Of a stretch of DNA of 64,000 bases, positions 10,226 through 38,369 are shown in pieces. The stretch covers positions 3,879 through 67,878 of the forward strand of contig CAYNND010000003.1 in assembly GCA_964398775.1 (NCBI GenBank), written 5' to 3'. The number at the start of each line of letters is the position of its first letter. The stretch's first letter is position 1. The notes beneath the pieces are model-generated. The model saw only the letters and a list, made by a program, of their open reading frames with translations, was not told the origin of the DNA and searched no databases. The DNA comes from an uncultured Candidatus Saccharibacteria bacterium. Lineage in GTDB: Bacteria > Patescibacteriota > Minisyncoccia > Phycocordibacterales > UBA2100. The translations under genes and the position numbers were made by a program.

Positions 10226-10238
10226 TTCGATTTCTGTA

Positions 10239-10706: not shown

Positions 10707-10764
10707 GGGTCGAGCCTATCATATCCTTGGTGTTTTGTAATTCTGTGGTATATTCTTGACGTTT

Positions 10765-10837: not shown

Positions 10838-10844
10838 CATGAGG

Positions 10845-10870
10845 AAAGAGTCGCGTGAGCGACTCTTTTA
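10845..10870. terminator. Rho-independent terminator between tRNA-Lys and the guaA 3' end
   Basis: AAAGAGTCGC-GTGA-GCGACTCTTT followed by TA. A-rich/T-rich flanks make it usable on both strands. Confidence 0.6.
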
Positions 10871-10885
10871 GTATAACGGAACATC

Positions 10886-12460: not shown

Positions 12461-12469
12461 CGGTCTATA

Positions 12470-13720
12470 CTACCACAGGCACGTTTTGAAAATACAGAGC
12501 GATGTACCTGTCTCATCAGCTTGGTTTGTGATGCGAAAGCCGTCTGTATCAGGAGTTTTTTTCGGCTTAAATATACAACTTGCACGCGCAACGACTTTGC
12601 GACTTGCATAACAGTCAATAGCAAAGACCGTCGAACGGAGTGGTAGTTTCACCTCCACAGTTCCAAGTGGCAGCTTTCGAGAATTAAACCCCCTCCCTTC
12701 TGTGGTCATTTTACCGCTGTACATATTTCCACATGACCACTCGATGGTAACCGTATGTGCGTCACTACGCTGCACGCAGCGCATCATTGGTTTTTTTCGC
12801 TCTGGTTCCTCTTCCTCAGTAAGAGTATCATCTACATACAAATCGGCCGCGGTCTTGGCATTTGATACTCCTGACTGCACCCCAGTATTCATCCCAGTAG
12901 CGCTCGTACTTATGCTATTTGTAGTTGGATATTGTTGTTGTGTGTACGGGTTTTGCTGTGGCTGTGTTTGATACTGTGGTGATTGTTGCATCTGCTGTTG
13001 CGTTTGGGGTTGCTGATACTGTTGCGCTGGTGTAGTCGCCCATTGTCCATCTTCTTGTGCGCCTGTCGGCATGATGTTTTGGACAACACCTTCAAGTGGT
13101 GTCCCACGAGCTGCTTCTTGAAGTATTTGACCTGTCGCAGTATGCAAAACTCCTCCAGGTGTTTGTATATTGGCGCCATTCTTGAGGAACGTCTGCAACA
13201 TGGTACGGACGCCAGGGTCAGTAATCTGCGCAATACCTGAACTTGAGTAGCCAGGACCCCATGCTGCGACTGCTTGTCGATTATCGACATGAAACTTATT
13301 TCCATTGTAGTATCCGAGTCCACCAATGCAGCGATTCTTGCAGCAGAGCCCTGCAAGCAGTAGCTGCCCAAAACGTTGTGCATTTCCTTTGACGACAACA
13401 TCAACTGCCCGCCCCTGCATGTGCTGGCTTTGTGATGCACCTCCAACTGAGGCGTTGTGCTGCGGTGAACGATATCCTGAGGTTACAGTGCATGCAGTAT
13501 TTTGGTTTGTGCGAATAAGCTGCTGAACATCTCCTCCCATCGCTGCGCATGCATTTATAACAATATCTGACGTGTACGTGTCGGCACCTAGCAACTTAGC
13601 TCCGTGCGTACCAGAAACTTCTTGCGGGCATGCAGGATTTTGAGCAGACCCAGCAGCATAGGCAACAGAAGTTGAGTTGAGCGCGAAAAATACTAGTACA
13701 AATATTGATTTCATATGCAA
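12470..13720 (-). CDS. Secreted Peptidase_M15_3 (MepK/YcbK-like LAS metallopeptidase) with Q-rich linker and one copy of shared C-terminal domain A
   Basis: 416 aa. Signal peptide MHMKSIFVLVFFALNSTSVAYA. LAS motifs SGYRSPQHNASVGGASQSQHMQGRAVDVVV and GLGYYNGNKFHVDNR. Linker QQYQQPQTQQQMQQSPQYQTQPQQ. C-terminal MMRCVQRSDAHTVTIEWSCG...FAIDCY...ASC is domain A of the paralog family. Confidence 0.75.
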   Translation of the reverse strand: MHMKSIFVLVFFALNSTSVAYAAGSAQNPACPQEVSGTHGAKLLGADTYTSDIVINACAAMGGDVQQLIRTNQNTACTVTSGYRSPQHNASVGGASQSQHMQGRAVDVVVKGNAQRFGQLLLAGLCCKNRCIGGLGYYNGNKFHVDNRQAVAAWGPGYSSSGIAQITDPGVRTMLQTFLKNGANIQTPGGVLHTATGQILQEAARGTPLEGVVQNIMPTGAQEDGQWATTPAQQYQQPQTQQQMQQSPQYQTQPQQNPYTQQQYPTTNSISTSATGMNTGVQSGVSNAKTAADLYVDDTLTEEEEPERKKPMMRCVQRSDAHTVTIEWSCGNMYSGKMTTEGRGFNSRKLPLGTVEVKLPLRSTVFAIDCYASRKVVARASCIFKPKKTPDTDGFRITNQADETGTSLCIFKTCLW

Positions 13721-15246
13721 AAGTTAAATACGCACAGTTTTCGCGGCGCTTCAGTGGCGCCTGTTTTTTGCGCCCCGGTGACAAATGACTCATCTGCTGG
13801 TTTTTCTGCAGAGACAGTTATCGTGCACTGCGCTCTCCCGATGAGCGTTTCACCATCATAGCAGTTAATACCGAGCATCGTTGTTTTTGCAGGACGGACG
13901 CGAATTGAGCCCAGAGTATTACCTTTCGAAGAGAACCCTATACCTTCACTTCGGGTTGCCGTTCGGCCGCACGACCATGCAAGTGTTGGGGCCGCACCTC
14001 GCAGTATCTTCAGCGGAACACAGCGGATTTTTGCATCACCAAATGTTTTTATCGTACTTTTTTTCTTTTCAGTCGACGTTTCGTCATCTTTTACTCCAGA
14101 AACACTCCCCCCAAGAGGATCATAAAATGTAGTGTCTTTATTCTCTCCCGTTGCGCCTATTACTTTCTGCTCAGCTTTCTTTTGTGCCGTCACTTGTTTC
14201 TTTTTTTCTTCTTCCTTCCACGCATCATCCTTGGCGAATGGATTCTTCCCGCCATCTTTTGGAAGTGGCTTGTTTGGGTCTAGAAATGAAGGTTTTGCAT
14301 CTTTTTGGAGCCGGTCAAAATCTGATTGCTTCCATTGACTTGCTCCTGGGTTGTAATTGCTACTTTGTACGCCGGTCGGACTTCCTGATTGACCACTGCT
14401 TGGTTGTTGCGATTGACCGCTTTGCTGATAGGGCTGCTGCCCTTGCCCGAGAGCTGCAATTTGCTCTGCTGTTGGGCCTTGACCAGGGGCTAAGTTGCTC
14501 CCATCAACACAAATTGAACCGACTTGGGTAGCAGCACGAACAGCTCGCCTGTTTGGAATGAGCATCCCAGCTCCTTTCAACTGCTGAGCAGCTTGTGCCA
14601 TCTTGGCAGCACTCACAGAATCTTGATACTCTGCAGCAACGACAGGAATACCCTGCTGCACAAAATAATTATACTTACCGCAATCTCCATTTTTTGCGCA
14701 ATCTTCTTCGAGAACCATTGCTATATTTTGTCTGTACTGCGGATACTGTTGCAATAATTTTACCCATGCACCTTCATCGTTTTTTATGACAACCTTGAGG
14801 CCATATTTCTGCCCCATATCGACCATGAAGCGTAAATCTTCGGGGGTTACTTTCTCTGCAGTATTGTCCGGTTCAAATGCTTTAAATCCTCTTTGTGCAG
14901 CTTGTTGCAATAATCGCTCAGTTCGAGCTCTGCCAGCAGGATGCCGCGCGAAATCTACCCATGGCTCGTTCCAGCCACCTTCACTTGCAGAACCACGATT
15001 TCCAGTCGCTCCTGCAGGACAATCACCCTGACATCGACCAATGTTTGTATACGCGACAGGGAAGACTCCTGACGGTGCATTACACTTCGATGAGTCGACA
15101 CTGCATGCCGCAGTTGCACCCGCACAGTCGCACCCACCAAGGTTCCACCCAAATGAGCCACATTTATTTCCTGCAGGAGTATTTGCTGCATATGCAGGCA
15201 GTATGATGCATATGCTGAGCAGACATGCACTGACAAGCAATTTCAT
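13711..15246 (-). CDS. Secreted protein with TIM-barrel glycoside-hydrolase-like domain (tentatively GH114-like), S/Q/G-rich linker and shared C-terminal domain A
   Basis: 511 aa. Signal peptide MKLLVSACLLSICIILPAYA. Central region with FEPDN, KVVIKNDEG and VVAAEY segments, tentatively hydrolase-like. Low-complexity linker QGQQPYQQSGQSQQPSSGQSGSP. C-terminal KIRCVPLKILRGAAPTLAWSCG...GINCY...AQC is domain A. Confidence 0.55.
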   Translation of the reverse strand: MKLLVSACLLSICIILPAYAANTPAGNKCGSFGWNLGGCDCAGATAACSVDSSKCNAPSGVFPVAYTNIGRCQGDCPAGATGNRGSASEGGWNEPWVDFARHPAGRARTERLLQQAAQRGFKAFEPDNTAEKVTPEDLRFMVDMGQKYGLKVVIKNDEGAWVKLLQQYPQYRQNIAMVLEEDCAKNGDCGKYNYFVQQGIPVVAAEYQDSVSAAKMAQAAQQLKGAGMLIPNRRAVRAATQVGSICVDGSNLAPGQGPTAEQIAALGQGQQPYQQSGQSQQPSSGQSGSPTGVQSSNYNPGASQWKQSDFDRLQKDAKPSFLDPNKPLPKDGGKNPFAKDDAWKEEEKKKQVTAQKKAEQKVIGATGENKDTTFYDPLGGSVSGVKDDETSTEKKKSTIKTFGDAKIRCVPLKILRGAAPTLAWSCGRTATRSEGIGFSSKGNTLGSIRVRPAKTTMLGINCYDGETLIGRAQCTITVSAEKPADESFVTGAQKTGATEAPRKLCVFNFCI

Positions 15247-15301
15247 TACTCTATTCTATCGTGTTTTTTACTCTAGCTGACCATCCGTCCACATCCAACA
15301 C

Positions 15302-16735
15302 TTATATTTCATCAAGAGGATCTTCGAAGATTGTCTGTACTTGGTTTGTTTGTCCTGTATTATTTTTTTGTTTTGCTTCATCATACAATACATCCTCTTC
15401 GATAAGTGTTACCGTCTCTGTTTTTGTGAAAACGTCAGTACCAGTTTTTGCTTTACACTTTATCGTAAATGTTTCTTCATTATCAATGGACGCAGATGAT
15501 ACTCGCCCACTCTTATCCGAAGAAGCGACTCCAGGACCTGTCACTGTACAGGAGCGCGCGTTTTGTGATGACCATACAACCTCTACAGTCTCTCCTGGAT
15601 ATACCTCTTGTGGCTCTACACTGAAACGCACAGATAACTTGGCGGTTGGTTTTGCTACTTGTATTTCGCAGGATTGCTTACCGACGACAACCGCACCTTT
15701 TTTACACTGGACGGTGTAGCGAGTTTTTTGTTGCGGTTTTACAACTGAAGAACCACTTGCTTCACCCTTTGTGTTAAGCGGCGCAAATGAGTTTGAAGAA
15801 CTCCCTACTGAGCGTGTCCCTGCAGGACACTCCCATTCAATACTTACTGATTCTCCTTTCGTAACTGACTCGGGATCACAAGTAAGCGTTATGCCACCTT
15901 CTGCTCCAGGGTCAGTAATTGCTGACTCCTCAGGTTTTTTTTGAAATGGATCTTGTTGCTTCATCTCAGGTGGCATACCTTGTTCCCCAGAGCCAGCCCC
16001 AGGCTGTCCTCCTCCGCTTGGTTGTTGTCCCGTCTGTGGACTGCCTTGCTGGTCTTGACCGCCTGGTGGTTGCTGCCCACCTCCTGGTGGTTGCTGCCCG
16101 CCCTGTCCTGGGTCTGCAATCGGACCACCACCTTTACACGGTGGAGTAGAAGGACTGCATGCCGCCTGACGATGTTCAATACACTGAATATGAGGACCCC
16201 AGTACGGGAAATGGAGCTGGTATTGCCCGGCAAGTCGCTTCAACACATCAACGCAGTTAACGTCAACTGCAAGTCCGTACTGATGGCAGGACTTCCCCGC
16301 AGGAGCACAACCACTCCTTCCACCACCACACATAGATGCCTGTTTTGCAGCACTTCGATAGGCACTGTTTATGCGAGGCGAGCAGCCAGAACGTGCTGCT
16401 GCATCGAAAAGCTTTGAAAGTCTGCACGCCAGACCTGAGTTGATTCCCCCTTGCCCATTCGGACCTGAAGGTACGCATTCGTTTTGTCGAGTGCATCCAT
16501 ATTTTGCGAGTGCTTGGAAGGGGTCTGTATCGCAACCACCATTTAAAATTCCCTTGTCTGAGGCTGTCGCATTGCTCATATCAATTCCCATTGAATTTAC
16601 TTGCGCGGTCTGCATTGATTCATCAGAAAACTCTTGAGTGAGGGTCACCAAAGATACGTCACCTCGAAGTGAGGCCGCGCCAACGACAAGCACTATTGCG
16701 AGCGTCGAAAAAAACCATGCGGTTTTATGCATCAC
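15302..16735 (-). CDS. Secreted VanY/M15B-like D,D-peptidase domain protein with G/Q/P linker and C-terminal A+B module
   Basis: 477 aa. Signal peptide MMHKTAWFFSTLAIVLVVGAASL. Motifs SAYRSAAKQ, SCHQYGLAVDV and LHFPYWGPH. Linker GGQQPPGGGQQPPGGQDQQGSP. C-terminal LTCDPESVTKGESVSIEWECP...YTVQCKK...QSC plus LSVRFSVEPQEVYPGETVEVVWSSQNARSCTV...FTIKC. Confidence 0.7.
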   Translation of the reverse strand: MMHKTAWFFSTLAIVLVVGAASLRGDVSLVTLTQEFSDESMQTAQVNSMGIDMSNATASDKGILNGGCDTDPFQALAKYGCTRQNECVPSGPNGQGGINSGLACRLSKLFDAAARSGCSPRINSAYRSAAKQASMCGGGRSGCAPAGKSCHQYGLAVDVNCVDVLKRLAGQYQLHFPYWGPHIQCIEHRQAACSPSTPPCKGGGPIADPGQGGQQPPGGGQQPPGGQDQQGSPQTGQQPSGGGQPGAGSGEQGMPPEMKQQDPFQKKPEESAITDPGAEGGITLTCDPESVTKGESVSIEWECPAGTRSVGSSSNSFAPLNTKGEASGSSVVKPQQKTRYTVQCKKGAVVVGKQSCEIQVAKPTAKLSVRFSVEPQEVYPGETVEVVWSSQNARSCTVTGPGVASSDKSGRVSSASIDNEETFTIKCKAKTGTDVFTKTETVTLIEEDVLYDEAKQKNNTGQTNQVQTIFEDPLDEI

Positions 16736-16780
16736 TCTATTCTACCAAGTATTTATCGTCCTGCGTCGACATACCCACAG

Positions 16781-18082
16781 CTACAATGCATCTGCAGGGT
16801 ATTCACTGTCTTGCGTATCTGTGTAAAAACGAACTGTCGCTGTCCGTGTAATCTTCTGTTGTTTTTGCTGACCAATACAAGTCAGTGTATATGTGACGTC
16901 GCGAGTAATCTCTTCCGTCGTGACACGACCTGACATGTCTTGCGAAGACACATCAGGGCCAGACAATGTACAGCTTTTTGCGTTAGCACTACTCCATGTT
17001 AGCTCAACGCGCTCTCCCGGACGAACCTCACTTGGGCGGGCCGATAGTCTGACACTCAGTGTTTGTTTTTGAGCGATGACCGGTATCGTACATGAACCTG
17101 TCGCTACTACTTTATTTGCCTTCACACAGGAAATGGTAAATGTTGTTTTTGATTTTGGCGCAACCTTCAAAACACCTTCCATTTTATTTTTTGTGTTGAA
17201 TGATGCCAGGTTCGGCTGAGCATGACTTCGTGATTGAGAAGCAGCGGGACACTTCCATGAAATTGAGGCTGAACTCCCCGGTGTAATTGTTGCAGGGGTG
17301 CACTCTATTTCAATATCGCCGCTCTCCTCTACAGGCGCTTTTGATTCAGCAACATCAGAGGCTTTCCCGTTTTGAGACGCAAGGAAATTATTTGGATTCT
17401 GACCAAATGATGTGCCCTGGCCTTGTTGAGTACCAGTTTGCTGTTGCGGCGTTTGCCCTGAAGCGGGAGGCTGCCCTTGCTGGCCTGTCGCATCCTGACC
17501 TTGTCCAAAGGATGCAGTATCTTGACCAGATGGAGGTGTCTGTGCCTGACATGCTGCATCGCAGCTACCCATTTGAAAATGCACTGGATCTCTCCCTCGA
17601 ATAGTAGGTGGATTAAAAATGCCGTACTGCGAACTAATTTGGTGTAGTTTTGTATAAATAGCAGCAGGACCTACATCTACTGCGAGACCTCTTCCATGAT
17701 ATGAACGGCCAGGTGGGGCTGCCAAACCACCACCGTTTTGATACCGCGCATACGCAGCGGCTTGTTCTTGAACACTTCGAAACGAATCATTTATGCGCGC
17801 ACGCACTCCTGTTTGCTGTTCTGCTGCTTGAATAGCTTGCATGACACGTTGACCAAACTGAGGGTTAAGTTGACGCATACGTCCGCATGAGCGACCACCG
17901 CATCGCGATTCAAGAAATTGAATCCAGTCTCCGTTTTGCGCGCCGAGCAGGTTCGTATCGCCTTGCATGAGAATTGTATCTTTGGGCAAGTTCAATGATT
18001 TAATTATTTCTGCGTGCGCAAAAGAAGAGGATATACACGCAATGCAAACAAATATTGATATATACGCAGTGGTGTATTTCAT
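16781..18082 (-). CDS. Secreted VanY/M15B-like D,D-peptidase domain protein with Q/G/T linker and C-terminal A+B module
   Basis: 433 aa. Signal peptide MKYTTAYISIFVCIACISSSFAHA. Motifs NDSFRSVQEQ, SYHGRGLAVDV and DPVHFQMG. Linker QGQDATGQQGQPPASGQTPQQQTGTQQGQG. C-terminal IECTPATITPGSSASISWKCP...FTISCVK...GSC plus LSVRLSARPSEVRPGERVELTWSSANAKSCTL...YTLTC. Confidence 0.7.
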   Translation of the reverse strand: MKYTTAYISIFVCIACISSSFAHAEIIKSLNLPKDTILMQGDTNLLGAQNGDWIQFLESRCGGRSCGRMRQLNPQFGQRVMQAIQAAEQQTGVRARINDSFRSVQEQAAAYARYQNGGGLAAPPGRSYHGRGLAVDVGPAAIYTKLHQISSQYGIFNPPTIRGRDPVHFQMGSCDAACQAQTPPSGQDTASFGQGQDATGQQGQPPASGQTPQQQTGTQQGQGTSFGQNPNNFLASQNGKASDVAESKAPVEESGDIEIECTPATITPGSSASISWKCPAASQSRSHAQPNLASFNTKNKMEGVLKVAPKSKTTFTISCVKANKVVATGSCTIPVIAQKQTLSVRLSARPSEVRPGERVELTWSSANAKSCTLSGPDVSSQDMSGRVTTEEITRDVTYTLTCIGQQKQQKITRTATVRFYTDTQDSEYPADAL

Positions 18083-18085
18083 AAG

Positions 18086-19630
18086 TTATTCGACAGTTAG
18101 TTCTGCTTCTTGTATAGCACGCGCACCGGAATCAGTTATGCACGAAAGTGTAAACGTGTGTGTGCCGCGCAGCGCAAGTGGTGGCGTCTCAATACTTCCC
18201 TCTATTCCTTCTTCTTTAAAACCTCGTGCGCGAAGCTCGCACGATTCGACCCTAACAGCACTCCATTCAATGAACGCAGTTTCTCCTCGGCTCACAACAC
18301 TCGGTTCAATGCGCAGAGATAACACTGGAGCTGCAGTGTTTTTTTGTTGCTTTTTCCCGGGGATGCGCGGCACATACTCGCATGTCGCCTGGTCAATGAT
18401 ACGTTGATTACGAAGACATTGTACAGTGTAGACAGTTTTCTTTTTTGCACTGACAAGCGATGTACCTACAAGCGAGCCGCGTGTTGAGAACTTACTGTCA
18501 TGCGGTGCTGAAAGTGCACGCGAAGTTGAACTGCCTGTACACGACCAGGATACAGAAGTTTCTCCGCATTCGATAGTTGCGTATGATTCCTCTTCAGCAA
18601 CAGCTCTATCTGTGACATTAAAGAAGCCATTTTGAGTGTTATATGCTTGCGCGGCTGGTTGGTCTTGATACTGAGGAAATCCCGATGTCTGCTGAGGAGA
18701 TTGCTGCTGTGATGGCGTTTGCTGTTGTGATGTCTGTTGTGATGATGGTGACTGCTGCCCACCCCAAGAACCTGGCTGCGCAGTATCCCAAGAACCTGGC
18801 TGTGATGCGTATTGGTTTAAAGTACTTTGGTATGCCTGCTGGTTGAGCGAACCATCAGGGTTAAATACATTTGTTGCAAGCGTCCCAAAGCCTGATGTTG
18901 CAAAAGAGGAAGTCAGCGAACCAGGAAGTGGCGGGCGTGTCCCGAGAGCAACAGCAACCCCGCGCTGTAGTGCAGGATATCCACGCACCATGAGGTTTAC
19001 TGCATCGGCACCTGTTGAGCCGCACTGAACCGGAACTTTGTTTACCGAAAGCGCCCAAACTGCACCACGACCAGCACATGAAAGTTGCATGCTAAACACA
19101 GACGAAGGATCCGCCGAGAGCAGAGCTCTGTGTGTTTGCGATGGCATGAGTTGTAACAACATCCCAATCGCAGCCTGTCTATATGAATCTGAAGTTGCAC
19201 GTTCAATTGGGTTTAAAAAACGAGCATTGTTTCCATACCATGCTGCAGCGCTCAACATATGACTTCCTCTTCCAAGTGAACCGGGTAATCGCCTGGTTTC
19301 TGCTTGGAGCACCTCAAAGAGGACCGGGTCATGCTGGCGGGCAATAGGAAGATACGCAGCAATACCGCGGTTAAATTGTTCTTCACTCAGCGCATATGAA
19401 CCTTTATATGCTGCGGCGTGGCCATTACAATTTGGTCGTGCTCCGCACTCTTGATGGAATACAGCGATTCCGACCAAACTTGCTGTGCGTTGCTGACAGT
19501 TGTATTGCTTACATGCCACACCGCCCACATACTGGATTTGCTGAATAGGGTCTTGCGAGAGTGTATTTGCCGAGAGCTGTCCGATACTCAAAAAAAAGTA
19601 CGCCACACAGATAGAAACGAGTAGTCTCAT
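18086..19630 (-). CDS. Secreted protein with unknown N-terminal domain, S/Q-rich linker and C-terminal A+B module
   Basis: 514 aa. Signal peptide MRLLVSICVAYFFLSIGQLSA. N-terminal domain of ~300 aa with no recognised motif. Linker SQQTSQQQTPSQQQSPQQTSG. C-terminal TIECGETSVSWSCTG...YTVQCLRNQRIIDQATC plus LSLRIEPSVVSRGETAFIEWSAVRVESCEL...FTLSC. Confidence 0.6.
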   Translation of the reverse strand: MRLLVSICVAYFFLSIGQLSANTLSQDPIQQIQYVGGVACKQYNCQQRTASLVGIAVFHQECGARPNCNGHAAAYKGSYALSEEQFNRGIAAYLPIARQHDPVLFEVLQAETRRLPGSLGRGSHMLSAAAWYGNNARFLNPIERATSDSYRQAAIGMLLQLMPSQTHRALLSADPSSVFSMQLSCAGRGAVWALSVNKVPVQCGSTGADAVNLMVRGYPALQRGVAVALGTRPPLPGSLTSSFATSGFGTLATNVFNPDGSLNQQAYQSTLNQYASQPGSWDTAQPGSWGGQQSPSSQQTSQQQTPSQQQSPQQTSGFPQYQDQPAAQAYNTQNGFFNVTDRAVAEEESYATIECGETSVSWSCTGSSTSRALSAPHDSKFSTRGSLVGTSLVSAKKKTVYTVQCLRNQRIIDQATCEYVPRIPGKKQQKNTAAPVLSLRIEPSVVSRGETAFIEWSAVRVESCELRARGFKEEGIEGSIETPPLALRGTHTFTLSCITDSGARAIQEAELTVE

Positions 19631-19655
19631 TCGAAAAGTATACCATCCAAAAGTA

Positions 19656-20912: not shown

Positions 20913-20916
20913 ATGT

Positions 20917-22398
20917 TTATCGTACTTCTACTTGGACAGATTTTGAAATCGTATCTCCGTCTGTGGTTCTGCACTCGAGCACATACTCTGCTGTTCCTCG
21001 TGTATAGAGTTCATCAGTACTCGCAGAACCTTCGGTCCCCTCTTCAGAAAGGCCTTCGCCGAACACGACACATGAGTCAACACGGACAGCGGCCCAAGAA
21101 ATCATCGCCGACTTCCCCCTTCGAACCTCTGTGGTATCGGCATTTATTGTCAAAACTGGTTTTATTGTTGTTCCAGCGCTCGGTGCAGTTTTTTGAGGAG
21201 TAAAAACACACGATGCTTCACTAATAATGGATTGTCTTTTTAAACACTGTACGGTGTATGTTGTTTTTCGTGAAGGTGCAACTGCAAGTGATCCGATGAG
21301 TGCACCACGTGTTTTAAATTGTGCATCTACAGGCTTTGAAATACCTCGAGAAAGTGTTGCGTCACTCGGGCAACTCCATTCAACAAGCTTGTCTTCACAC
21401 GTAAGCAAATCATCGTCAGAGACTGTTTCATCTTCTGAAACTACTTCAGTATTCTGAAACGGAGTTTGCTGAGAAGGGTTTGTTGGTTGAAATGGGTTCT
21501 GGTACGGATTTTGCATAAATGGCTGGCTTGGTTGTTGCTGCCCTGCTTGTTGCGTACCGCTTTGTTGTGACCCTGTCTGGGGTGACGGTTGTGCCCACTG
21601 GCCTTGTGATGCAAATGGATTTTGCCCTTGATTGTCCTGTGGGTTACCTCCCATACCTTGGATTAGGCCGCCGAGTGGGCTATTGTTCCCCTCTATTGCT
21701 GTGCCGAGACTTTTCAATTGTCCCACATCGGCTGGAACTGAGCCTGGAGGGATTTGCCCATACGCCATGGCTGTTCCCTGGGCGAGTTGTTCGCATGTGT
21801 AGTTTACGAAGCCAACTTCAATACGTGCAGAAGAGAGCGCGATCTTCGCCATCATATCCTTATCATTTGGGTTAAATACCTGATTGGGCTGAATTCCGAC
21901 CCAGCTCGCTACGGTGTTTGCATAACTTGTCGGATTATTTCCACCATGACATGAAGGTGCCCACACTTGTTTTAATTCAATTAGCGTACACCGCGGTCGG
22001 GAACCGCCACCCCTATTGCATGCATCTGGTCTTCCTCGAGTACACATATCTCGAATGAGTGCGACATGCGCTGCAATTCCGTGCACAACAGAGGGAAAAA
22101 TTGCTGTACGATTGTTATTACTAAAACCTTGGCTTCCGAATTGCCGTGCAATAGGATTGTATACTTGCGCACCTGGGTTACGCGTCTCACATGCAAGCTT
22201 GCATTGCCCATTTCCTCTTTTTGTTGCCATGAATTGCTGACACCACTGCATGAACGCAGGAGACAACCCTGCGACATCTTGATTTGCTGCATGTACTGGC
22301 GTCACATAAAACGCACCAAAAAACAGACATGCGACAAAAATAGAACATGCGATCGCAGTTCGCTGCACTACGACGTATTGTGTGCGCAGCGTGTTCAT
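20917..22398 (-). CDS. Secreted protein with unknown Cys-containing N-terminal domain, Q/P-rich linker and C-terminal A+B module
   Basis: 493 aa. Signal peptide ...AIACSIFVACLFFGAFYVTPVHA. N domain of ~230 aa with no recognised motif. Linker QGQWAQPSPQTGSQQSGTQQAGQQQPSQPFMQNPYQNPFQP. C-terminal LLTCEDKLVEWSCPS...YTVQCLKRQSIISEASC plus LTINADTTEVRRGKSAMISWAAVRVDSCVV...YVLEC. Confidence 0.6.
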   Translation of the reverse strand: MNTLRTQYVVVQRTAIACSIFVACLFFGAFYVTPVHAANQDVAGLSPAFMQWCQQFMATKRGNGQCKLACETRNPGAQVYNPIARQFGSQGFSNNNRTAIFPSVVHGIAAHVALIRDMCTRGRPDACNRGGGSRPRCTLIELKQVWAPSCHGGNNPTSYANTVASWVGIQPNQVFNPNDKDMMAKIALSSARIEVGFVNYTCEQLAQGTAMAYGQIPPGSVPADVGQLKSLGTAIEGNNSPLGGLIQGMGGNPQDNQGQNPFASQGQWAQPSPQTGSQQSGTQQAGQQQPSQPFMQNPYQNPFQPTNPSQQTPFQNTEVVSEDETVSDDDLLTCEDKLVEWSCPSDATLSRGISKPVDAQFKTRGALIGSLAVAPSRKTTYTVQCLKRQSIISEASCVFTPQKTAPSAGTTIKPVLTINADTTEVRRGKSAMISWAAVRVDSCVVFGEGLSEEGTEGSASTDELYTRGTAEYVLECRTTDGDTISKSVQVEVR

Positions 22399-22401
22399 AT
22401 A

Positions 22402-25400
22402 TTACTCACCTACGTATTCTTCTCCTGGAGCCTCCTCCGTGCCATCACTTGACACTTCGATAGTAACAGAGTCTGACGCGCGAGTTTTTCTATCTGGTGC
22501 AATACACTCAACGCGGAACTGACTAGTCTCGTATAGATTACCAGTGACATAGCCTGAGCGTCCGACCTCTTTGAAACATTTCGGACTGTCTTTACCAAAC
22601 GTGTCACATCCCGGTCCGTAGACTACACATGATGCAGTGTTTTGACTTCTCCATGTAACTTTTACTGAAGTACCTTTCGGTGCTGCAGGCGGTTCGGCGG
22701 AAATTGATACAGTTGGACGAGCTCCTGAGGTCGTTGTTGTCGTAGTACTAACACCGTTCACCTCAACTCGGCACGAGCTTCGTGCAATTTCTTTGTTGAA
22801 CTTGTCTCGGCAGCGAACGACATAGGTAGCATCACGGATTGGCTTAACATTTGCAGACCCCTCGGCATCTCCACCCGTTCCAAACTCACCATCTTCAGTA
22901 CTTGTTCCAACAGACTTTTCTGTTTTCGCTGGGCATGACCAAACGACAGCTGCTTCTTCACCAGCTTTAATGGTCTCTGGATCACACGACATATCAGCCT
23001 CACCAACTTCTGTCGTATCATCTTCCTCTTCCTCGTCCTCTTCATCAGCAGGTTTTACGAAAACTTTTACAGGCGGCGTACAGACATTTGTTCCAATTTC
23101 ATTCGCCACCTTTATCGTATACGTAGTTGTACGCTCAGGAGACACATCAACAGAGCCCCCATCGACGACCCCGAGACTTCCTTTTTCGGGCGCGCCTTTT
23201 TCATCGGTCGTTGTAAAGTTGATGATAGTTTTTAGTGTTCCCTTACCAGTGACGTCCCATGTAATTGTCGCACTCTCTCCAGACTTGATCGTCTTTGGAG
23301 TGATAGATACAGAATCTTCAGTACACTTTGGTGCTTCAGTCGGCGTGTTCTTTCCATAGAGATCATCCCACCACCATGGCTTCTGGTTTTGGTTGTTATT
23401 ATTATTTTGCGGTTGCTGTTGCTGCTGAGCAAGTGCTTTAGCAATTTCTCCAAGCGCTTTACTTGGGTCTCCACCGCCGCCACCAGGTGGGCTGCCACCG
23501 CCTGGAGGATTACCCCCTCCTGGAGGGTTCCCGCCACCTGGTGGTTGGTTTCCAGGAGGAGTGTTCCCTGGAGGAGTTGCTGGTGCTGCCTTACAATTAC
23601 CTTGTCCAGGGGTATCACATGGGTTCCCCTTATCATCAACACCTTTCTCTTTTGCTTTTTCTTGATCTTCTTTTCGGCAGACCATGACCGATTGTCTACC
23701 CTCACCAGATTCAACCGCACAGACTGTATAACCTTTTGTCTTTATAGCACTGATATCTTCCTGGTTCATCACAGGAACAGTACTGTATCCCATACGCTTA
23801 CACATATCGTGGCATTTTTTTCTGGCTTCAAGTGCCTTATCCTTACTCTGGCATTCACCATTGGTTTTATCGGCTTTAGTCTTGTCTTCACCAGTAACTT
23901 TTGGGGTATACACACCCCACTCTACTGGCATAACAGAATCTTTGTGTGTTCTGTCTTCAAACTGCTTTACACATTTTGGATCAAGTTTTGGTTTTGCGAC
24001 AGCACCACCAGAAGTTGTCTTGCACTTTTCTTCCATGATTTTCTTGTTCTCTTGATCACAACGGCCTGTCAAAGTATCTGCCGTTTTTGTGACAGGAGTT
24101 TTAGTTTTGTCTGGCGCTGGTTTTGGGCACTCTTTTGGTTGACCCGGAAGACCTGCAACACATACTGCTGCAACTTGTCTACTGCCAATTGAAACCCTGT
24201 CAACAGCACACCAGAAACAGAATGTGTTTCTGAGCCAAGAACCAAAACGATTGAAAAATCCTTGTCGCTCTTTCGGAACACGCTCACTGCCGCCAATTAT
24301 ATCTTCTGTAAGACCTCCAGTGACGGACTCACGAGGTCGATTCCAGAGATTTCGGACCTCATCAGGTGTCAGGTCATTCATATTCTCGATTCGATACCCG
24401 CGCTTTATATTTGCACGCGCCTCTGCTTCTCGCGCTGCGCGCTCCAGAGTCTCCATATCTTCCTTTGAATAGACTCCGTCTTTGCCGAGTTCATCTGCAA
24501 GCTGGTCAAACGCTTCATCGACCTCAAGATCTTCCACACCAAATGCATTTGGGTCTGCTTTCAGAGCATTTGGGTCATTTTGAAATGCGTCTGGATCACT
24601 TTCCAAATCTTCTTTCTCACCGTATTTTCCGATAAAGCCATCGTAGTTCAAAGCTCCGGTACCCGTTGCAGTCTTTGATCCTCTCTTTAAATCAGTATTT
24701 GTGTTCGTGTCTGTCGTCTTGCCGCTTCCATCACCGAGTGGATTCTCGAGTGACTCATCGTTACCTCCTTCATCTGAAGTTGTATCACTGTCATCAGTCT
24801 CTCCATCGTCTTCACCATTAGATACATCTGAATAATCACCATTTACATTTACAAAAACTTTTGTTTTACATGTACTAAATCCACTTCTATTTTCGACTTT
24901 CAACGTATAGGTAGTCGTCTTCGTGGGAGAAACGGTTGCTGTACTGCCCGTTGCCTCACCTACTCCAGGACTAATAGTCACGCCACCTGGGGCACCCTGC
25001 CCACCTGAGGCTTCTGGTGTTCCTTCTGAGACAAGCCAAGAAAGTGTTGTTGATTCGCCACTTTTTACTGGCTTTGTGCCTGACGCTGCAGAAAAGTCAC
25101 TGCACTTCGGCACCTTTGTGTATCGAGGGTCCACGTACGGAGGAGTATCCCCACTGCCACCCTGATCACCACCACCTCCTCCGCCACCACCAAGTGCCTT
25201 AAGCATCTGACCAATCGCATCCATAAGTCCACCGGCACCACCTGCGAGACCCTGTGCTGCAGGTTTAATCATACAAGTCTGTCCACCTTCTGCATTCGCG
25301 AAGCATGATATTGGTGTACACGTTTTCTTTTGTTCTTTTGTTGCTTCGGTTTCAACACCAATAGAACCACCAGTTGAGAATGAGTTTTTATCACATGCCG

Positions 25401-25578
25401 CACCAGTTACTGATTGCGCAACTTGTCGCGTCATAGACCGAGGCATCCCTGCTGTCTGGTCTATTGCTCCGATAATGAGTACGAGAAGTACCATGAGACC
25501 GCCGAGCTGCGCGCCATGTCTGAGCGCAGCGCTCGTTTGGCTCTGTGATGAGTCTGACATAATGTAATAGTAACGCAC
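22402..25578 (-). CDS. Giant membrane-anchored surface protein with Gly-rich segments, two PKD/Big-like beta-sandwich repeats, Cys-rich central region, PPGx repeats and C-terminal A+B module
   Basis: 1058 aa. N-terminal TM LGGLMVLLVLIIGAI with no cleavable signal. Two repeats of the type SGES.T.SW.V....TTTY(T/I)(L/I)KV.N..G...C...V.V. Cys-rich block CHDMCKRMGY...VCAVESGEG...VCRKED. Repeats PPGNTPPGNQPPGGGNPPGGGNPPGGGSPPGGGGG. C-terminal DMSCDPETIKAGEEAAVVWSCP...YVVRC...SSC plus VSISAEPPAAPKGTSVKVTWRSQNTASCVV...FRVEC. Confidence 0.65.
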   Translation of the reverse strand: MRYYYIMSDSSQSQTSAALRHGAQLGGLMVLLVLIIGAIDQTAGMPRSMTRQVAQSVTGAACDKNSFSTGGSIGVETEATKEQKKTCTPISCFANAEGGQTCMIKPAAQGLAGGAGGLMDAIGQMLKALGGGGGGGGDQGGSGDTPPYVDPRYTKVPKCSDFSAASGTKPVKSGESTTLSWLVSEGTPEASGGQGAPGGVTISPGVGEATGSTATVSPTKTTTYTLKVENRSGFSTCKTKVFVNVNGDYSDVSNGEDDGETDDSDTTSDEGGNDESLENPLGDGSGKTTDTNTNTDLKRGSKTATGTGALNYDGFIGKYGEKEDLESDPDAFQNDPNALKADPNAFGVEDLEVDEAFDQLADELGKDGVYSKEDMETLERAAREAEARANIKRGYRIENMNDLTPDEVRNLWNRPRESVTGGLTEDIIGGSERVPKERQGFFNRFGSWLRNTFCFWCAVDRVSIGSRQVAAVCVAGLPGQPKECPKPAPDKTKTPVTKTADTLTGRCDQENKKIMEEKCKTTSGGAVAKPKLDPKCVKQFEDRTHKDSVMPVEWGVYTPKVTGEDKTKADKTNGECQSKDKALEARKKCHDMCKRMGYSTVPVMNQEDISAIKTKGYTVCAVESGEGRQSVMVCRKEDQEKAKEKGVDDKGNPCDTPGQGNCKAAPATPPGNTPPGNQPPGGGNPPGGGNPPGGGSPPGGGGGDPSKALGEIAKALAQQQQQPQNNNNNQNQKPWWWDDLYGKNTPTEAPKCTEDSVSITPKTIKSGESATITWDVTGKGTLKTIINFTTTDEKGAPEKGSLGVVDGGSVDVSPERTTTYTIKVANEIGTNVCTPPVKVFVKPADEEDEEEEDDTTEVGEADMSCDPETIKAGEEAAVVWSCPAKTEKSVGTSTEDGEFGTGGDAEGSANVKPIRDATYVVRCRDKFNKEIARSSCRVEVNGVSTTTTTTSGARPTVSISAEPPAAPKGTSVKVTWRSQNTASCVVYGPGCDTFGKDSPKCFKEVGRSGYVTGNLYETSQFRVECIAPDRKTRASDSVTIEVSSDGTEEAPGEEYVGE

Positions 25579-25621
25579 GCTCTAAAAAAAGCACGCGATT
25601 ATGCACCAATACTGTGTAGAA

Positions 25622-28012
25622 TTATTGAACGTCTACCTTTACAGAACGGGTGCGTGTCTCAGAACCTTTTTTACACGTGAGCGTGAATACAAGCGGCCCA
25701 GGTTTATCAGAAGTACCGGACACTTTTCCTTCATTTGTATCCTGTTTAAATCCGTTTGGACCAACCACCGAGCATGAGTCAACGTTTGCCGTCCTCCAGT
25801 TAATGGTCACTTCCTGCGTCCCGACGGCAATTTTTGCTGGTTCTGCAACAATTGAAAGTTTCATGTCTGTGCTTGTCGCAGCAGTGGGTGCGCGTTTTAC
25901 AGCAGTGGGACGCTGTGTTTGAGTGCTCCTCGGGACAACACGAACACTGCAAGAGCTCGTAGCTGAACGCTTTGCCTTTGTGCTAATGCAGCGTACTGCA
26001 TAGACCGTAGATGATTGCGGAGTTACCTTTAAACTCCCCGATGTTTTCCCTTCAACATAGAACGATTCCATCTCAGAGAGTGGCGTCCCGTTCAGATGCT
26101 TAGCAAGTGACGTGGCACGACGTGAGTTATCAGGGCATGACCACACGATAGTCGCACTCTTCCCATCTTCGACATCTTTGGGTGAGCATCGTATTTCTGG
26201 CTCAAGTGTCGTATAGTCCTCCTCTGCCTCTTCCTCCTCTTCCTCAGCAACGACGACATCTCGCTGGATTATCTTTCTTGGTTTTACAGAGATGGTTATC
26301 GGGCCGCAACATGCAGCGCCCGGGATCCCACAACTTTGCTGTTGTGGTTGTGTGTACTGAGGGTAGCTCTGTTGCGCGTAGGCATTTCCATTTATTGGCG
26401 AGCCGTCGAGTGCGGTTCCTGTGTCGTACTGTCCCATTGTTTGCTGCCCGTACGAGCCGTACCCACCCATCGTTTGCCCAGCTCCAGGAATACCGTAACC
26501 CACAACACTATATGCTGTCGTTTCTTTTGGACGAACTGTCACACTACTACCATTAATATTCCCAGAACCACCACGAAGTTCATACCGAATAGCATATGGG
26601 ATATTCCATTGAATCGTCACCTGCTCTCCCTCGGTTATTTCGCGTTTGTTAGCGTTAATACCGGCACAGTACGGAGCTGGCATATTTGGCTGCTGCAGTT
26701 GTTGATTTTGCTGAGGCTGCTGATTTTGCTGAGGCTGTGAGCCCTGTTTTGGCTGCTCTTTTGGATTACTACTTGAAGATGTTGGTCTAAATCCGCTACC
26801 ATCGTTGGTCGGTTGCTGTGGAGGCCTCTCGGGGCCTGGTGCTGGTGTAGGGTTTTTGTTTTTATCTTTTTCGGAATCAGGGGGTGTATTCCCAGATCCT
26901 CGGTGTGGGTTTGTCTGAGCAACTCGGTCAAAAGCCTCTGCAGAATTAATTTTTTTCAATTCATCGTCTAGCTTGTCTTTTTCAACACTCACAGGATTTG
27001 ACTTCGGCACCCACTCACCCTGCTCATTTTTTACAAACGTTTGATACTGACATTTACCTTGGGCATCACACGTCGCAACAATCCGTCGATTATCATCGAT
27101 ATCATGTCGAAATTCTTTTCCTGGTTCTGACTGCGCCTTTTTTGCTAACTCTGCTTGGCTTCCGGTGGCCGTTGCCGTATTTGGATTTAAGTCAGGCTTC
27201 GGACGAAGCTCTTCCTGAAGCTTTTCTGCATCAGCCTTTGTGCAAGCAACATGCCACCTCCCTTTAAACATTGGTAAGTCTTCGCGAGTTTTTCCTGTTT
27301 TCTTTTCAGCCTCAGTAAGCACGCGAGGGCGAGACTGGTCGTACCAAAATACAACTGCTGTGTTACCGCTCTTTAGTTCAGTTATCGGGCATTCTTTACG
27401 CTCAGCAACAACAGCATTCTTGAATCGAAGTTGTACGTTCAGACTCGTATTCTGATGGCATACTGCATTCATTGAAAAGCGTTGTGTCTCACCTTGAGGC
27501 TGCTGATACCCAAGTGTCATGAATGGGACAGTAATGCTCGCACCACCGCATGAGACCGCTTGCCCATCATTTGCGCTGCCATTCGTACAATTTAGTGTTG
27601 TTTGGGTACCATCTGGACAGGTTTTCTTTCCAAATATGCCCTCGCCTGTTTGGAGTGCTGTTTGACACGCATGACTCTGGGCACCACCTCCCATCTGCTG
27701 ACAAGTCGCCTGGACACTTTGGCATTGCTTCTGCGCATCTCCGAGTTTGTAACATGCTTGCGTAGCTCCATTTTCGCGAGAAGTTGTTATGTCTGCACAT
27801 TTTGGTGTACTCGAATCTGTCTGCTGTCGCTCACATGCTTGCATGACCGTCCTCCCGTTACGCTGCACCATTTTGTATTCAACTGCAGCTTCCGCAAAAC
27901 TGAGTGCGCTGAGTAAAAAAAGTGAGCAGATGAATAGAGTACGCATAGTGAGCCGCTGTATCATGGGGTAAGTGTACCACTTGGATAGACACGAGTACCA
28001 AGCATTATGCAC
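25622..28012 (-). CDS. Large secreted protein with Cys-rich N-terminal region, Q/P-rich linker and C-terminal A+B module (true start probably an internal Met near 27964/27946)
   Basis: 796 aa ORF. Signal-like MRTLFICSLFLLSALSFAEA after an internal Met. Cys-rich N region with no recognised motif. Linker QGSQPQQNQQPQQNQQLQQP. Acidic stretch VVVAEEEEEEAEEDY. C-terminal EIRCSPKDVEDGKSATIVWSCP...YAVRC...SSC plus LSIVAEPAKIAVGTQEVTINWRTANVDSCSV...FTLTC. Confidence 0.6.
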   Translation of the reverse strand: MHNAWYSCLSKWYTYPMIQRLTMRTLFICSLFLLSALSFAEAAVEYKMVQRNGRTVMQACERQQTDSSTPKCADITTSRENGATQACYKLGDAQKQCQSVQATCQQMGGGAQSHACQTALQTGEGIFGKKTCPDGTQTTLNCTNGSANDGQAVSCGGASITVPFMTLGYQQPQGETQRFSMNAVCHQNTSLNVQLRFKNAVVAERKECPITELKSGNTAVVFWYDQSRPRVLTEAEKKTGKTREDLPMFKGRWHVACTKADAEKLQEELRPKPDLNPNTATATGSQAELAKKAQSEPGKEFRHDIDDNRRIVATCDAQGKCQYQTFVKNEQGEWVPKSNPVSVEKDKLDDELKKINSAEAFDRVAQTNPHRGSGNTPPDSEKDKNKNPTPAPGPERPPQQPTNDGSGFRPTSSSSNPKEQPKQGSQPQQNQQPQQNQQLQQPNMPAPYCAGINANKREITEGEQVTIQWNIPYAIRYELRGGSGNINGSSVTVRPKETTAYSVVGYGIPGAGQTMGGYGSYGQQTMGQYDTGTALDGSPINGNAYAQQSYPQYTQPQQQSCGIPGAACCGPITISVKPRKIIQRDVVVAEEEEEEAEEDYTTLEPEIRCSPKDVEDGKSATIVWSCPDNSRRATSLAKHLNGTPLSEMESFYVEGKTSGSLKVTPQSSTVYAVRCISTKAKRSATSSCSVRVVPRSTQTQRPTAVKRAPTAATSTDMKLSIVAEPAKIAVGTQEVTINWRTANVDSCSVVGPNGFKQDTNEGKVSGTSDKPGPLVFTLTCKKGSETRTRSVKVDVQ

Positions 28013-28718
28013 AGAGTCGCATCATACTCCGCTCAAGCTCATCGTACCCATCGCGCCCCCGTGTTCGCGCTCGGTGGAGTAGATATGCAGACTCACGCAC
28101 AAGTTCTGCAAGCGCAACACCCCACTGCTTTGCACCAGTGCGTGCTTTATTGTATACAAACGGCTTCAAGCCTGAAGATGCAGGACTCTCGCTGTGAGCT
28201 GCAATATACATTGCTTTTGCTGCCCACAATAACAAACCCACTATCGACTCAACTTCATCGCCACGCAGTCGCGCTTCTTCTATTCGAATAAAGAGCTGCT
28301 TTGCATCTCTTGCGTAGAGTGCATCTGCAAGTGCGAATGGATTGTATGCTTGACTTGAGACCTCTTTCAAAGAAGATTCTACAATAGTGTGTGCATACTT
28401 TTTCAGTATATTTTTTTCTGCTGCCTTTAGTTCTCCATCAATGACAATCACGATGTGCTCGCTTTCAGCAAAGTGTTGTGTGTGCTCACTATATTCTTGT
28501 GCCTCTGGAGATGAAAAAATGCCATTGAGCGTAATAATCATCTTGTCTTTAAATAAACCCTGTGTTGCGAGAATATCACCAATGTGTGCCCCTGCGATTG
28601 TTTCGCTGTTTAAGGAAACTCGCGTTGCAAATGGCTCTCTCTCAAGAAGCCGATTTACACATACACGTGCTTTTTCTGCGCTTGTTTTCTGATCTGATCC
28701 GATAAAGACGTACAGCAT
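28005..28718 (-). CDS. DNA polymerase III delta subunit-like protein (HolA-like, short)
   Basis: 237 aa. N-terminus MLYVFIGSDQKTSAEKARVCV... resembles the HolA N-terminal domain. Sits immediately downstream of polA. Short for HolA, so the assignment is tentative. Confidence 0.4.
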   Translation of the reverse strand: MLYVFIGSDQKTSAEKARVCVNRLLEREPFATRVSLNSETIAGAHIGDILATQGLFKDKMIITLNGIFSSPEAQEYSEHTQHFAESEHIVIVIDGELKAAEKNILKKYAHTIVESSLKEVSSQAYNPFALADALYARDAKQLFIRIEEARLRGDEVESIVGLLLWAAKAMYIAAHSESPASSGLKPFVYNKARTGAKQWGVALAELVRESAYLLHRARTRGRDGYDELERSMMRLCA

Positions 28719-38368: not shown

Positions 38369-38369
38369 A

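Follow-up and report, generated by a model that had tools for sequence, protein, structure and literature searches.

Which proteins are encoded by a run of nine adjoining genes whose products share a C-terminal tail and carry different N-terminal domains, and what could such a family do for a bacterium belonging to the candidate phyla radiation (CPR)? The question is raised by a stretch of 64,000 nucleotides from an uncultured member of the Patescibacteriota (contig CAYNND010000003.1 of assembly GCA_964398775.1, positions 3,879 to 67,878), called the window below, in which the nine genes lie on the minus strand at 12470-28012 and are labelled g1 to g9. Little is known about how CPR/Patescibacteria interact with a host's envelope, or about how cells with such reduced genomes manage their own wall. 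Here, we argue that this chromosomal locus of a Parcubacteria/Minisyncoccia bacterium would encode a single family of paralogous surface proteins that are Sec-exported and rich in disulfides. Each of them would consist of a signal peptide (in g8, an anchor), a variable head, a linker of 70-150 residues that is rich in Q, P, G and S and ends acidic, and one (A) or two (A+B) immunoglobulin (Ig)-like domains. We found no description of this locus or of its tail in the literature that could be searched.

A shared tail on nine exported proteins

The nine proteins are tied together by their C-terminal regions, which align with one another at E-values of 1e-5 to 1e-19 in an all-against-all blastp comparison, bearing out the common C-terminal unit proposed in the initial annotation of the window. 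In MAFFT alignments, domain A is invariant at C7, W22, C24, G49, V53, C65 and C77, and domain B at C117 and C148. The four conserved cysteines of A, as well as the division into seven proteins with A+B and two (g1 and g2) with A alone, agree with that annotation both by alignment and by hidden Markov models (HMMs). In a six-frame translation of the 64-kb window the A and B HMMs match no open reading frame (ORF) outside the nine, and in the related loci described below they match every array gene. The cysteines would pair as C24-C65, the classical B-F pair, as C7-C77, which joins the ends of domain A, and, in domain B, as C117-C148.

The tail could not be assigned to a family by eye in the initial annotation. 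Pfam returns only DUF7363 (0.03) and A2M_BRD (0.0018), both under their cut-offs, and none of Big_2, CARDB, PKD, He_PIG, FN3 and DUF7363 matches above the curated cut-off, so that the tails are set apart from the ordinary Big_2, CARDB and PKD families. The tail has no match in NCBIfam and no PDB sequence match at E<=1. LysM, SH3b, choline-binding, GW, SLH and PG_binding modules were not detected in the tails with Pfam and NCBIfam; a word-indexed homology search with the g4 tail found no match, and an exact-sequence look-up of g4 found no record. AlphaFold2, run on the alignment of the nine tails, gives a model of two all-beta domains with a predicted local distance difference test (pLDDT) score of 92.2. 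Both are Ig-like sandwiches, and the structural matches of the model are generic Ig/PKD/FN3-like modules. On this model the tail is a tandem Ig-like beta-sandwich, a known fold, and is no longer without assignment. Hoc-like Ig decorations of phage capsids are usually credited with adhering weakly to surface glycans. Among viral models (BFVD), the tandem tail is matched best by such Hoc-like decorations and by virion structural proteins (E 7e-9 to 1e-6), but sequence identity is just 13-23% and nothing beyond the fold speaks for common descent.

Domain B had been described as not being a tandem duplicate of A. This claim is probably wrong. Aligned by hhalign, A and B give an E-value of 3.8e-5 and a probability of 71%, and each HMM weakly matches the position of the other domain. 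On these grounds we rejected the view that A and B are unrelated, and the two are probably homologous Ig-like domains.

The wider family of the tail was sought by scanning its profile with HMMER over 1.84 billion representative proteins, which gave matches to 10,355 clusters at E<=1e-3 and to 408 at E<=1e-30. The top matches are giant proteins with 10-43 copies of the unit, a number typical of surface adhesin-like proteins; their cluster names are uninformative, and five of them, when scanned, gave sub-threshold Ig-type matches only. In the 150 best proteins there are 1,289 domain matches, 1,181 of which are closer to B and 108 closer to A. The consensus of the repeat family (...LxWxSxNAxSCxxSGxWxG...GSxxVxPxxTTTYTLTC...) places its cysteine pair where domain B has it. 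By profile match and cysteine positions, domain B represents, in one copy, a very large family of two-Cys Ig-like repeats for which neither Pfam nor NCBIfam has a model. The setting differs: in the array the unit is single, stands at the C-terminus of enzymes and follows a four-Cys domain A, whereas in the giant proteins it forms tandem arrays. Domain A departs from the repeat family, having four cysteines at other positions. Its pattern was found in only 7 of the 150 best proteins, all of them orthologues of g3, g4, g7, g8 or g9, and among these best matches domain A is, by its cysteine pattern, a lineage-specific four-Cys derivative and the signature of this locus. The A-domain HMM can be used to look elsewhere for genomes that encode related surface proteins, and the scan draws attention to a two-Cys Ig-like repeat family of >10,000 clusters that both Pfam and NCBIfam lack.

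The position of the tail was mapped in each protein; all array coordinates are on the minus strand. The longest arrangement, A followed by B, occupies 15407-15898 in g3 (A 15647-15898, domA HMM 2e-32; B 15407-15634, domB HMM 2.6e-30), 16829-17320 in g4 (A 17069-17320, B 16829-17056; the sequence used for the AlphaFold2 model), 18095-18586 in g5 (A 18359-18586, B 18095-18325), 19665-20144 in g6 (A 19914-20144, B 19665-19895) and 20926-21426 in g7 (A 21187-21426, B 20926-21156). In g8 it spans 22456-23004 (A 22750-23004, B 22456-22713, with the insertion of an extra Cys pair in B), and in g9 25631-26206 (A 25928-26206, B 25631-25861). The lone domain A lies at 12554-12796 in g1 (residues 309-389; domA hmmsearch 5.9e-28; net charge +11) and at 13804-14040 in g2 (residues 403-481; domA 1.7e-27). 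In place of B, these two proteins have a spacer of ~25 residues and a terminal hydrophobic motif, [LF]C[IVL][FL]x[TFS]C, which reads LCIFKTCLW in g1 (12473-12499) and LCVFNFCI in g2 (13714-13737). The motif is kept among orthologues that are just ~40-50% identical overall (related loci L002, L004 and L006), including the g1 orthologue of each of these loci.

Beyond the layout first annotated, g8 and g9 have additional Ig-like copies that lie upstream of the tail. The first of g8 lies at 24856-25071 (residues 170-241) and is a weak domA match with an independent E-value of 0.018; the second lies at 23071-23313 (residues 756-836; 1.2e-6), and residues 675-840 of g8 also match a PHROG virion structural protein at 2.5e-8. 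In g9 the extra segment, at 26504-26653 (residues 454-503), is found by blastp against the g3 tail (8e-4) and by domA (0.035). Eight of the nine proteins have a basic domain A, with a net charge of +1 to +11, which would fit binding to an anionic surface polymer; g8 has the sole acidic A (net -5), and its head has a net charge of -16.

Short acidic extensions were also observed after domain B in three proteins, namely g3 (15302-15400, ...FEDPLDEI), g4 (16781-16825, ...EYPADAL) and g8 (22402-22450, ...EEYVGE). They are kept in the orthologues P0138, P0139 and P0096, respectively, and could be short linear motifs.

At the other end of the proteins, hydropathy analysis shows one hydrophobic segment in each of the nine, always N-terminal, and AXA-like sites follow it by eye in most of them; the signal peptide or anchor first annotated is thus found throughout. 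In g8 the segment covers residues 21-45 behind a polar N-terminus, which suggests an uncleaved membrane anchor. On these features, export of all nine proteins is predicted. Hydropathy analysis finds no C-terminal hydrophobic segment in any of them, and no sorting-domain model of NCBIfam matches (LPXTG, PEP-CTERM and type IX secretion system C-terminal domain types were considered), which speaks against a covalent or C-terminal sorting signal. The cysteines number 12-30 per protein. Every protein also contains a run of 60-100 residues in which Q, P, G, S, T and N together make up at least 70%, and in most of them the 25 residues preceding the tail are acidic, with up to 12 aspartates and glutamates.

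Variable heads and the growth of the array

Most of the head motifs listed in the initial annotation were recovered by HMMs, and the peptidases among them are the best defined. It had counted three or four LAS metallopeptidases; there are three, g1, g3 and g4, each with intact LAS zinc motifs, and no fourth. The gene g1 (12470-13720) encodes an exported protein with an M15_3 LAS metallopeptidase head, a linker, an A-only tail and the C-terminal CxxxxC. Its match to Pfam PF08291 (Peptidase_M15_3), at 13286-13519 (residues 68-145), scores 5.9e-15 and 55.8 bits against a cut-off of 23.2, and the zinc-ligand motifs read from the sequence are HMQGRAVD (residues 100-107, H100-x6-D107) and a downstream FHVD. 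The family named at first is right; although MepK-like, g1 is not a MepK equivalog, as it scores 37.7 against the 185 required by NCBIfam. In PHROG it matches the endolysin phrog_894 at 5.2e-18.

The two heads annotated as VanY/M15B-like are confirmed at scores that barely exceed the Pfam cut-off of 25 bits. They belong to g3 (15302-16735; VanY at 16238-16438, residues 100-166, 8.1e-7, 29.3 bits) and g4 (16781-18082; VanY at 17639-17845, residues 80-148, 9.6e-8, 32.3 bits), each an exported VanY-type LAS peptidase with a linker and A+B. The first has the motifs SAYRS and HQYGLAVD and the second HGRGLAVD and PVHFQ, following the S-x-H-x-x-G-x-A-x-D motif. Neither is a VanY resistance equivalog of NCBIfam; g3 matches a PHROG endolysin at 6.3e-6, and PHROGs label the g4 head endolysin-like. 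The two are paralogues (33% identity over the full length, blastp 9e-48), and their orthologues in related loci are P0138 for g3 and P0139 for g4.

For g2 (13711-15246), an exported protein with an A-only tail behind its linker and the CxxxxC motif, a TIM-barrel hydrolase-like head had been proposed. This is right as to the kind of enzyme and wrong as to the family suggested, since GH71 (PF03659) is ruled out by the lack of a match at E<=0.1. Instead, the head matches PF03537 (Glyco_hydro_114) at 14587-15072 (residues 59-220; 1.1e-16, 61.2 bits against a cut-off of 27). The match spans profile positions 38-210 of 231, and by profile g2 is a GH114 family member over most of the domain. The L002 orthologue has the same architecture. 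GH114 enzymes are endo-alpha-1,4-galactosaminidases that act on galactosamine-rich exopolysaccharides (PMC12054363).

Three or more heads had been listed as unknown. Those of g5 and g9 remain without a family, while that of g7 (20917-22398), an exported protein with a linker and A+B, is related to a phage lysin. A profile of its head built from 9 homologues matches PDB entry 7q47_A at E 8.4e-7, covering residues 28-135 of 170. This structure is the catalytic domain found in the endolysin of Hafnia phage Enc34, founder of the PHA02564 family, which has an unusual lysozyme-like fold and is a proposed glucosaminidase (PMC8943055). Residues W146, Y159 and E194 of g7 are invariant among the 9 homologues and align with W79, Y95 and the catalytic E131 of Enc34. 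PHROG matches to an endolysin (7.8e-11) and to a tape-measure lytic domain (8.5e-10) accompany the endolysin-like region, which lies at 21772-22200 (residues 67-209). The g7 head is thus a predicted lysozyme-like glycosidase of the PHA02564/Enc34 type in which the catalytic residues are kept. It differs from the phage enzyme in its setting, being chromosomal and joined to a signal peptide and an Ig-like tail where Enc34 has a C-terminal two-helix membrane domain, and in an insertion of ~20 residues with extra Cys residues in the g7 family; its activity is a prediction.

The 3D domain annotated in g6 (19656-20912; exported, with a linker and A+B) is probable but not established. Pfam 3D (PF06725) is the sole match to this head and the best supported across three orthologues, but it is sub-threshold, at E 0.02-0.05 and 14.3 bits against a cut-off of 23.8. 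The match lies at 20478-20624 (residues 97-145), and D65, D100 and D113 in the numbering of the head, which are within it or just upstream of it, are invariant in the three orthologues. Profile and sequence searches of PDB gave no meaningful match to the head, and a tblastn search of phage genomes gave none. If the assignment is right, g6 would carry an MltA-like double-psi barrel.

For the g5 head (residues 22-262 of the product of 18086-19630, which is exported and ends in a linker and A+B), searches of Pfam, NCBIfam, PHROG, PDB and, by tblastn, phage genomes found no match. A single-sequence AlphaFold2 model reached a pLDDT of 35.7, and the orthologue in L007 is 79% identical overall with a head that is 96% identical, so that it adds no depth to a profile. 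No relation to the g7 head family is detectable by hhalign (probability 0.8%), and by blastp g5 resembles g7 only in the last part of the head and in the linker and tail that follow. A candidate SLT/Rpf-like motif, HQECG...G.Y.LS..QF, was read by eye in this head.

The two largest genes have heads of another kind. The product of g8 (22402-25578; ~1052 residues) is acidic and Cys-rich, and combines the N-terminal anchor with the two extra Ig-like domains, low-complexity tracts and A+B. Its head has no family in Pfam or NCBIfam, and its PDB matches are Gly-rich linkers of single-chain variable fragments only; g8 is the most conserved member of the array, with orthologues P0096 (81%) and P0135 (49%). 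The product of g9 (25622-28012) is large, Cys-rich and exported, with the partial extra Ig-like domain, Q-rich tracts and A+B, and its head has no family match in Pfam, NCBIfam or PHROG and nothing meaningful in PDB.

The nine ORFs are all present on the minus strand in the ORF listing of the window, and the tight spacing described at first is confirmed, with intergenic gaps of 3, 3, 4, 25, 43, 45 and 55 nt and an overlap of g2 and g1. Given a g1 start at 13714, this overlap is an ATGA in which the stop of g2 meets the start of g1. Comparison with orthologues and with a gene call made independently indicates that three ATG starts are likely later than the ORF ends, at 13714 in g1, for which there is an independent 414-residue call on a Logan contig, at 25560 in g8 and at 27964 in g9, where the start of the orthologue P0149 is an internal Met of g9. 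With the last of these, the apparent overlap of g9 and holA vanishes. A promoter and terminator scan of the array found sites no more frequently than in shuffled controls, and the operon structure is therefore read from spacing alone. One hairpin, with a 10-bp stem and T-rich 3' sequence, was noted at 25574-25597 (minus strand) within the 43-nt gap between g9 and g8; it is the sole strong terminator-like site within the array.

Related loci were found in a GTDB scan (two) and in a metagenome scan (one), and in four other genomes the array occupies the same place, flanked by polA-holA and guaA/SpoU, while its membership varies. Where the window has g9 g8 g7 g6 g5 g4 g3 g2 g1, L007 (~75-80% identity), whose contig ends within the array, has g8 g7 g6 g5 g3 g2; L004 and L006 (~70% identity) have g9 g8 g7 g3 g1; and L002 (~45% identity) has g9 g8 g6 g7, two VanY genes, g2 and g1. 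Judged from these gene contents, the core set is g9, g8, g7, one VanY gene and g1. The same position in four relatives with varying members indicates an old locus that has been passed on vertically and has both gained and lost members. The guanine-cytosine (GC) content of the array is 0.46-0.50, the same as that of its flanks, and together with the conserved position it rules out a mobile island or prophage, in line with the initial annotation. An effector-immunity locus of the polymorphic toxin kind is ruled out as well, because gaps of at most 55 nt leave no room for immunity genes and there are no small ORFs between the genes.

How the family grew can be read from its tails. Clustering of the A domains by the unweighted pair group method with arithmetic mean on p-distances, which gives a crude tree, separates four groups: g1 with g2; g3 with the VanY genes; g5, g6 and g7; and g8 with g9 and, loosely, g4. 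An 8-residue deletion in A is common to g5, g6 and g7 despite their unrelated heads, and g1, a peptidase, shares the A-only tail and terminal CxxxxC motif with g2, a glycosidase. That tail sub-families cross unrelated heads indicates head replacement on duplicated tails, and lends direct support to growth of the family by tandem duplication with head replacement, much as the initial annotation had supposed. The tails of g6 and g7 in L002 are each other's nearest neighbours, as are those of its two VanY genes, which may reflect gene conversion or heads swapped independently. In L002 the orthologues of g6 and g7 also stand in inverted order (8549-11452 and 11427-14208).

Heads and tails have not changed at the same rate. 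Between orthologues of the enzymes, the heads are more alike than the tails (97% against 69% identity in g6, 96% against 69% in g5 and 68% against 48% in g1), while the reverse holds for g8 and g9, where no part is as well conserved as the tail (87-92% against 61% for the head in g8, and 70% against 40% in g9).

What the array may do

The reading that we favour, tentatively and at somewhat less than an even chance, is that the array is a lineage-specific family of surface-tethered envelope hydrolases whose tail retains the enzymes on the envelope of the producer. The M15_3 peptidase g1 and the VanY-type LAS zinc peptidases g3 and g4 would cut peptide stems and cross-links, the Enc34-type g7 and probably the 3D/MltA-like g6 would cut glycan strands, and the GH114 member g2 would cut an alpha-1,4-galactosamine exopolysaccharide. 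The tail would be a non-catalytic, common surface-binding module that holds the enzymes on the producer's envelope, and the long linker would let a head reach the producer's own wall as well as any wall pressed against it. In this scheme g8 and g9 would be non-enzymatic, structural or adhesive members. An arsenal of peptidoglycan hydrolases, as first proposed, is supported in part: five heads are assigned to hydrolases, whereas GH114 does not act on peptidoglycan and g5, g8 and g9 have no enzymatic assignment. While the genes, the head assignments of g1, g2, g3, g4 and g7, the Ig-like fold and repeat family of the tail and the synteny with its changing copy number are shown by the analysis, we infer export, the disulfides, the tail's role in binding and where the enzymes act.

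The tail is read as a surface-binding module because one module is common to many exported paralogues, as in the Cwp/CWB2 and choline-binding designs. CWB2, choline-binding, GW and SLH modules anchor families of Gram-positive surface proteins, and pneumococcal choline-binding LytA, LytB, LytC and CbpD, the GW proteins of Listeria, lysostaphin and zoocin A are examples of modular wall hydrolases. In C. difficile, the Cwp proteins are clustered exported paralogues that share the non-covalent anchoring module CWB2 and have variable domains, including the lytic transglycosylase Cwp19 (PMC5842191, PMC6016235). The array is like them in having clustered exported paralogues, variable functional domains and one common module. 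It differs in that its module consists of one or two Cys-stapled Ig-like sandwiches and not of three CWB2 repeats, in that it belongs to a CPR bacterium whose genome is reduced, and in that binding by the tail is putative; Pfam finds no homology to CWB2, CW_binding, GW or SLH in the array proteins. By analogy, the array would work like a shared-anchor family and be a member of none that is known. Modular autolysins and endolysins have an N-terminal catalytic domain, a flexible linker and a C-terminal module, and undergo domain shuffling (PMC8943055, PMC12356512). The array has the same domain order, and in it several enzymes of one organism share a module, but its tail is Ig-like and its genes form one contiguous array.

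A system of this kind, in which exported hydrolases share a binding module and were expanded by duplication and shuffling, is already known. What is new is the tail, a four-Cys Ig-like domain with a canonical two-Cys unit that is absent from Pfam and NCBIfam, as is the way in which a single conserved, contiguous locus joins one module to at least five different enzyme folds. New as well are the CPR setting of the hydrolase family and an exported chromosomal protein with a lysin domain of the Enc34 type. The locus offers a compact conserved candidate set of five to nine exported proteins marked by a lineage-specific tail. The tails are usable as affinity reagents for their binding partner, be it a wall polymer of the producer, a host surface or g8, and the Enc34-type and LAS-type heads, coming from an unexplored phylum, may be of interest for new lytic enzymes.

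Several points weigh against tethering to the producer's envelope. No ligand-binding motif was found in the tail, and the positions that never vary between the paralogues have structural roles (Cys, Trp, Gly, Val). That the enzyme tails change more quickly than the heads would be compatible, too, with a passive spacer or with a module that diversifies to recognise hosts, and in glycosidases an Ig-like domain often does no more than space. As g8 probably has a membrane anchor already, it would not need the tail for its retention, and a LysM-M23 hydrolase in the same genome shows that targeting of the own wall is possible without an Ig-like tail. Finally, g5, g8 and g9 have heads without a family match and the match of the g6 head is sub-threshold, and the signal peptides were assessed by hydropathy and by eye.

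Some of these points would be explained if the enzymes were a host-directed lytic kit, which we consider possible though rather unlikely. Released or presented at the contact site, they would breach or trim the wall or matrix of a host, opening access to nutrients or wall precursors, and the tail would recognise the host surface, as endolysins or bacteriocins do through their wall-binding domains. Consistent with this are the heads of phage-lysin type (PHROG endolysin matches of g1, g3, g4 and g7, and the homology to Enc34), a GH114 enzyme whose target is exopolysaccharide and not peptidoglycan, the gain and loss of the accessory g2, g4, g5 and g6 among relatives, enzyme tails that diverge faster than heads as they would for changing targets, and the LysM-M23 enzyme elsewhere in the window, which could serve the own wall. 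Cultivated CPR bacteria are obligate episymbionts. Against a kit of this sort, the locus bears the signs of a resident with housekeeping duties: it is core and syntenic, it stands in an apparent operon with polA, holA and guaA, it has no room for immunity genes and lacks them, and its VanY/M15-type peptidases are of a type that typically matures or remodels the wall and does not kill.

The same housekeeping context would suit an ordinary set of autolysins for wall remodelling, with Ig-like domains that are inert, protease-resistant spacers or folding aids. The invariant residues of the nine tails are structural only, and the structural matches are generic Ig/PKD/FN3-like modules that often are spacers in glycosidases. 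We find a passive tail doubtful, because a spacer at the extreme C-terminus behind a long flexible linker spaces nothing, and because the tail is kept in every member and orthologue, including the A-only variants with their terminal Cys motif. It is moreover the most conserved part of g8 and g9, and its domain A is basic in all but one of the proteins. A last alternative makes more of this charge, in that the basic A(+B) tails of the enzymes would dock on the anchored acidic g8, and possibly on g9, to form a multi-enzyme complex analogous to dockerin and cohesin. It accords with the N-terminal anchor of g8, its at least four Ig-like domains, its head charge of -16 and its sole acidic A beside the basic A domains of the enzymes, and with the presence of g8 and g9 in the versions of the locus (g8 in all, g9 in all whose array is complete), their tails being under the strongest constraint. 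Like a cellulosome, the locus combines different hydrolases that have one common C-terminal module with a large anchored multi-domain protein, but the interaction is hypothetical, Pfam finds no dockerin or cohesin signature or homology, charge complementarity is weak evidence, and tandem Ig-like repeats are common in adhesins that scaffold nothing. Docking is in our view improbable. Equally improbable is its extension, that A is a docking module by which the enzymes assemble on g8, with g9, as a cellulosome-like complex that opens walls at the contact of episymbiont and host. Profile searches for known adhesin, dockerin and sorting domains gave no match, and there is no C-terminal transmembrane segment. 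Tethering on the producer's own envelope thus stays the reading under which we describe the locus.

The surrounding chromosome

The surroundings are those of an ordinary chromosome, with shikimate genes, RuvABC, a Mur ligase, the SpoU methylase, guaA, polA, a PilB-like ATPase, penicillin-binding protein 1A and dnaN/dnaA. The ORF at 28005-28718 (minus strand), initially annotated as holA, has no Pfam match at E<=0.1 and adjoins polA in the relatives (35-64% identity).

Three further genes of the window were noted. At 60376-61359 (plus strand) lies the wall hydrolase with two LysM domains and Peptidase_M23 (9.3e-30), from which it follows that the organism also uses a standard peptidoglycan-binding module besides the Ig-like tail. 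The gene at 34533-37073 (minus strand) encodes a class A penicillin-binding protein, with transglycosylase and transpeptidase domains and a C-terminal Ig-like Big_7 domain that is unrelated by HMM to the array tail. The gene at 9323-10225 (plus strand) encodes a lamin-tail-domain (LTD) protein that has a hydrophobic segment at its N-terminus and is rich in Cys in its C-terminal half; its Pfam LTD match is sub-threshold (28.7 bits against a cut-off of 34.3), and it adjoins the SpoU methylase in L002 and L006 too.

In Patescibacteria a cluster resembling a type IV secretion system (T4SS) is reported near the replication genes (PMC12102498), as it is found in this window. Here it lies at 42791-55172 (minus strand), near dnaN (38370-39479) and dnaA (39646-40998), and includes a T4SS_pilin-like ORF (42791-43276; 5.7e-5), a VirB4/TraG P-loop ATPase (45640-47487), a weakly TrbL/VirB6-like ORF (49232-51481) and several ORFs without a match. 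Around dnaN and the spacer between dnaN and dnaA, GC content falls to 0.365 (38001-40000) against 0.44-0.50 elsewhere, and this stretch may be the neighbourhood of the replication origin.

Two further genes encode fused enzymes. That at 4062-5858 (minus strand) specifies an EPSP synthase-shikimate kinase fusion (AroA-AroK), and at 58541-60058 (plus strand) HTH_3 is fused to a MurA-like enzyme of the EPSP-synthase fold.

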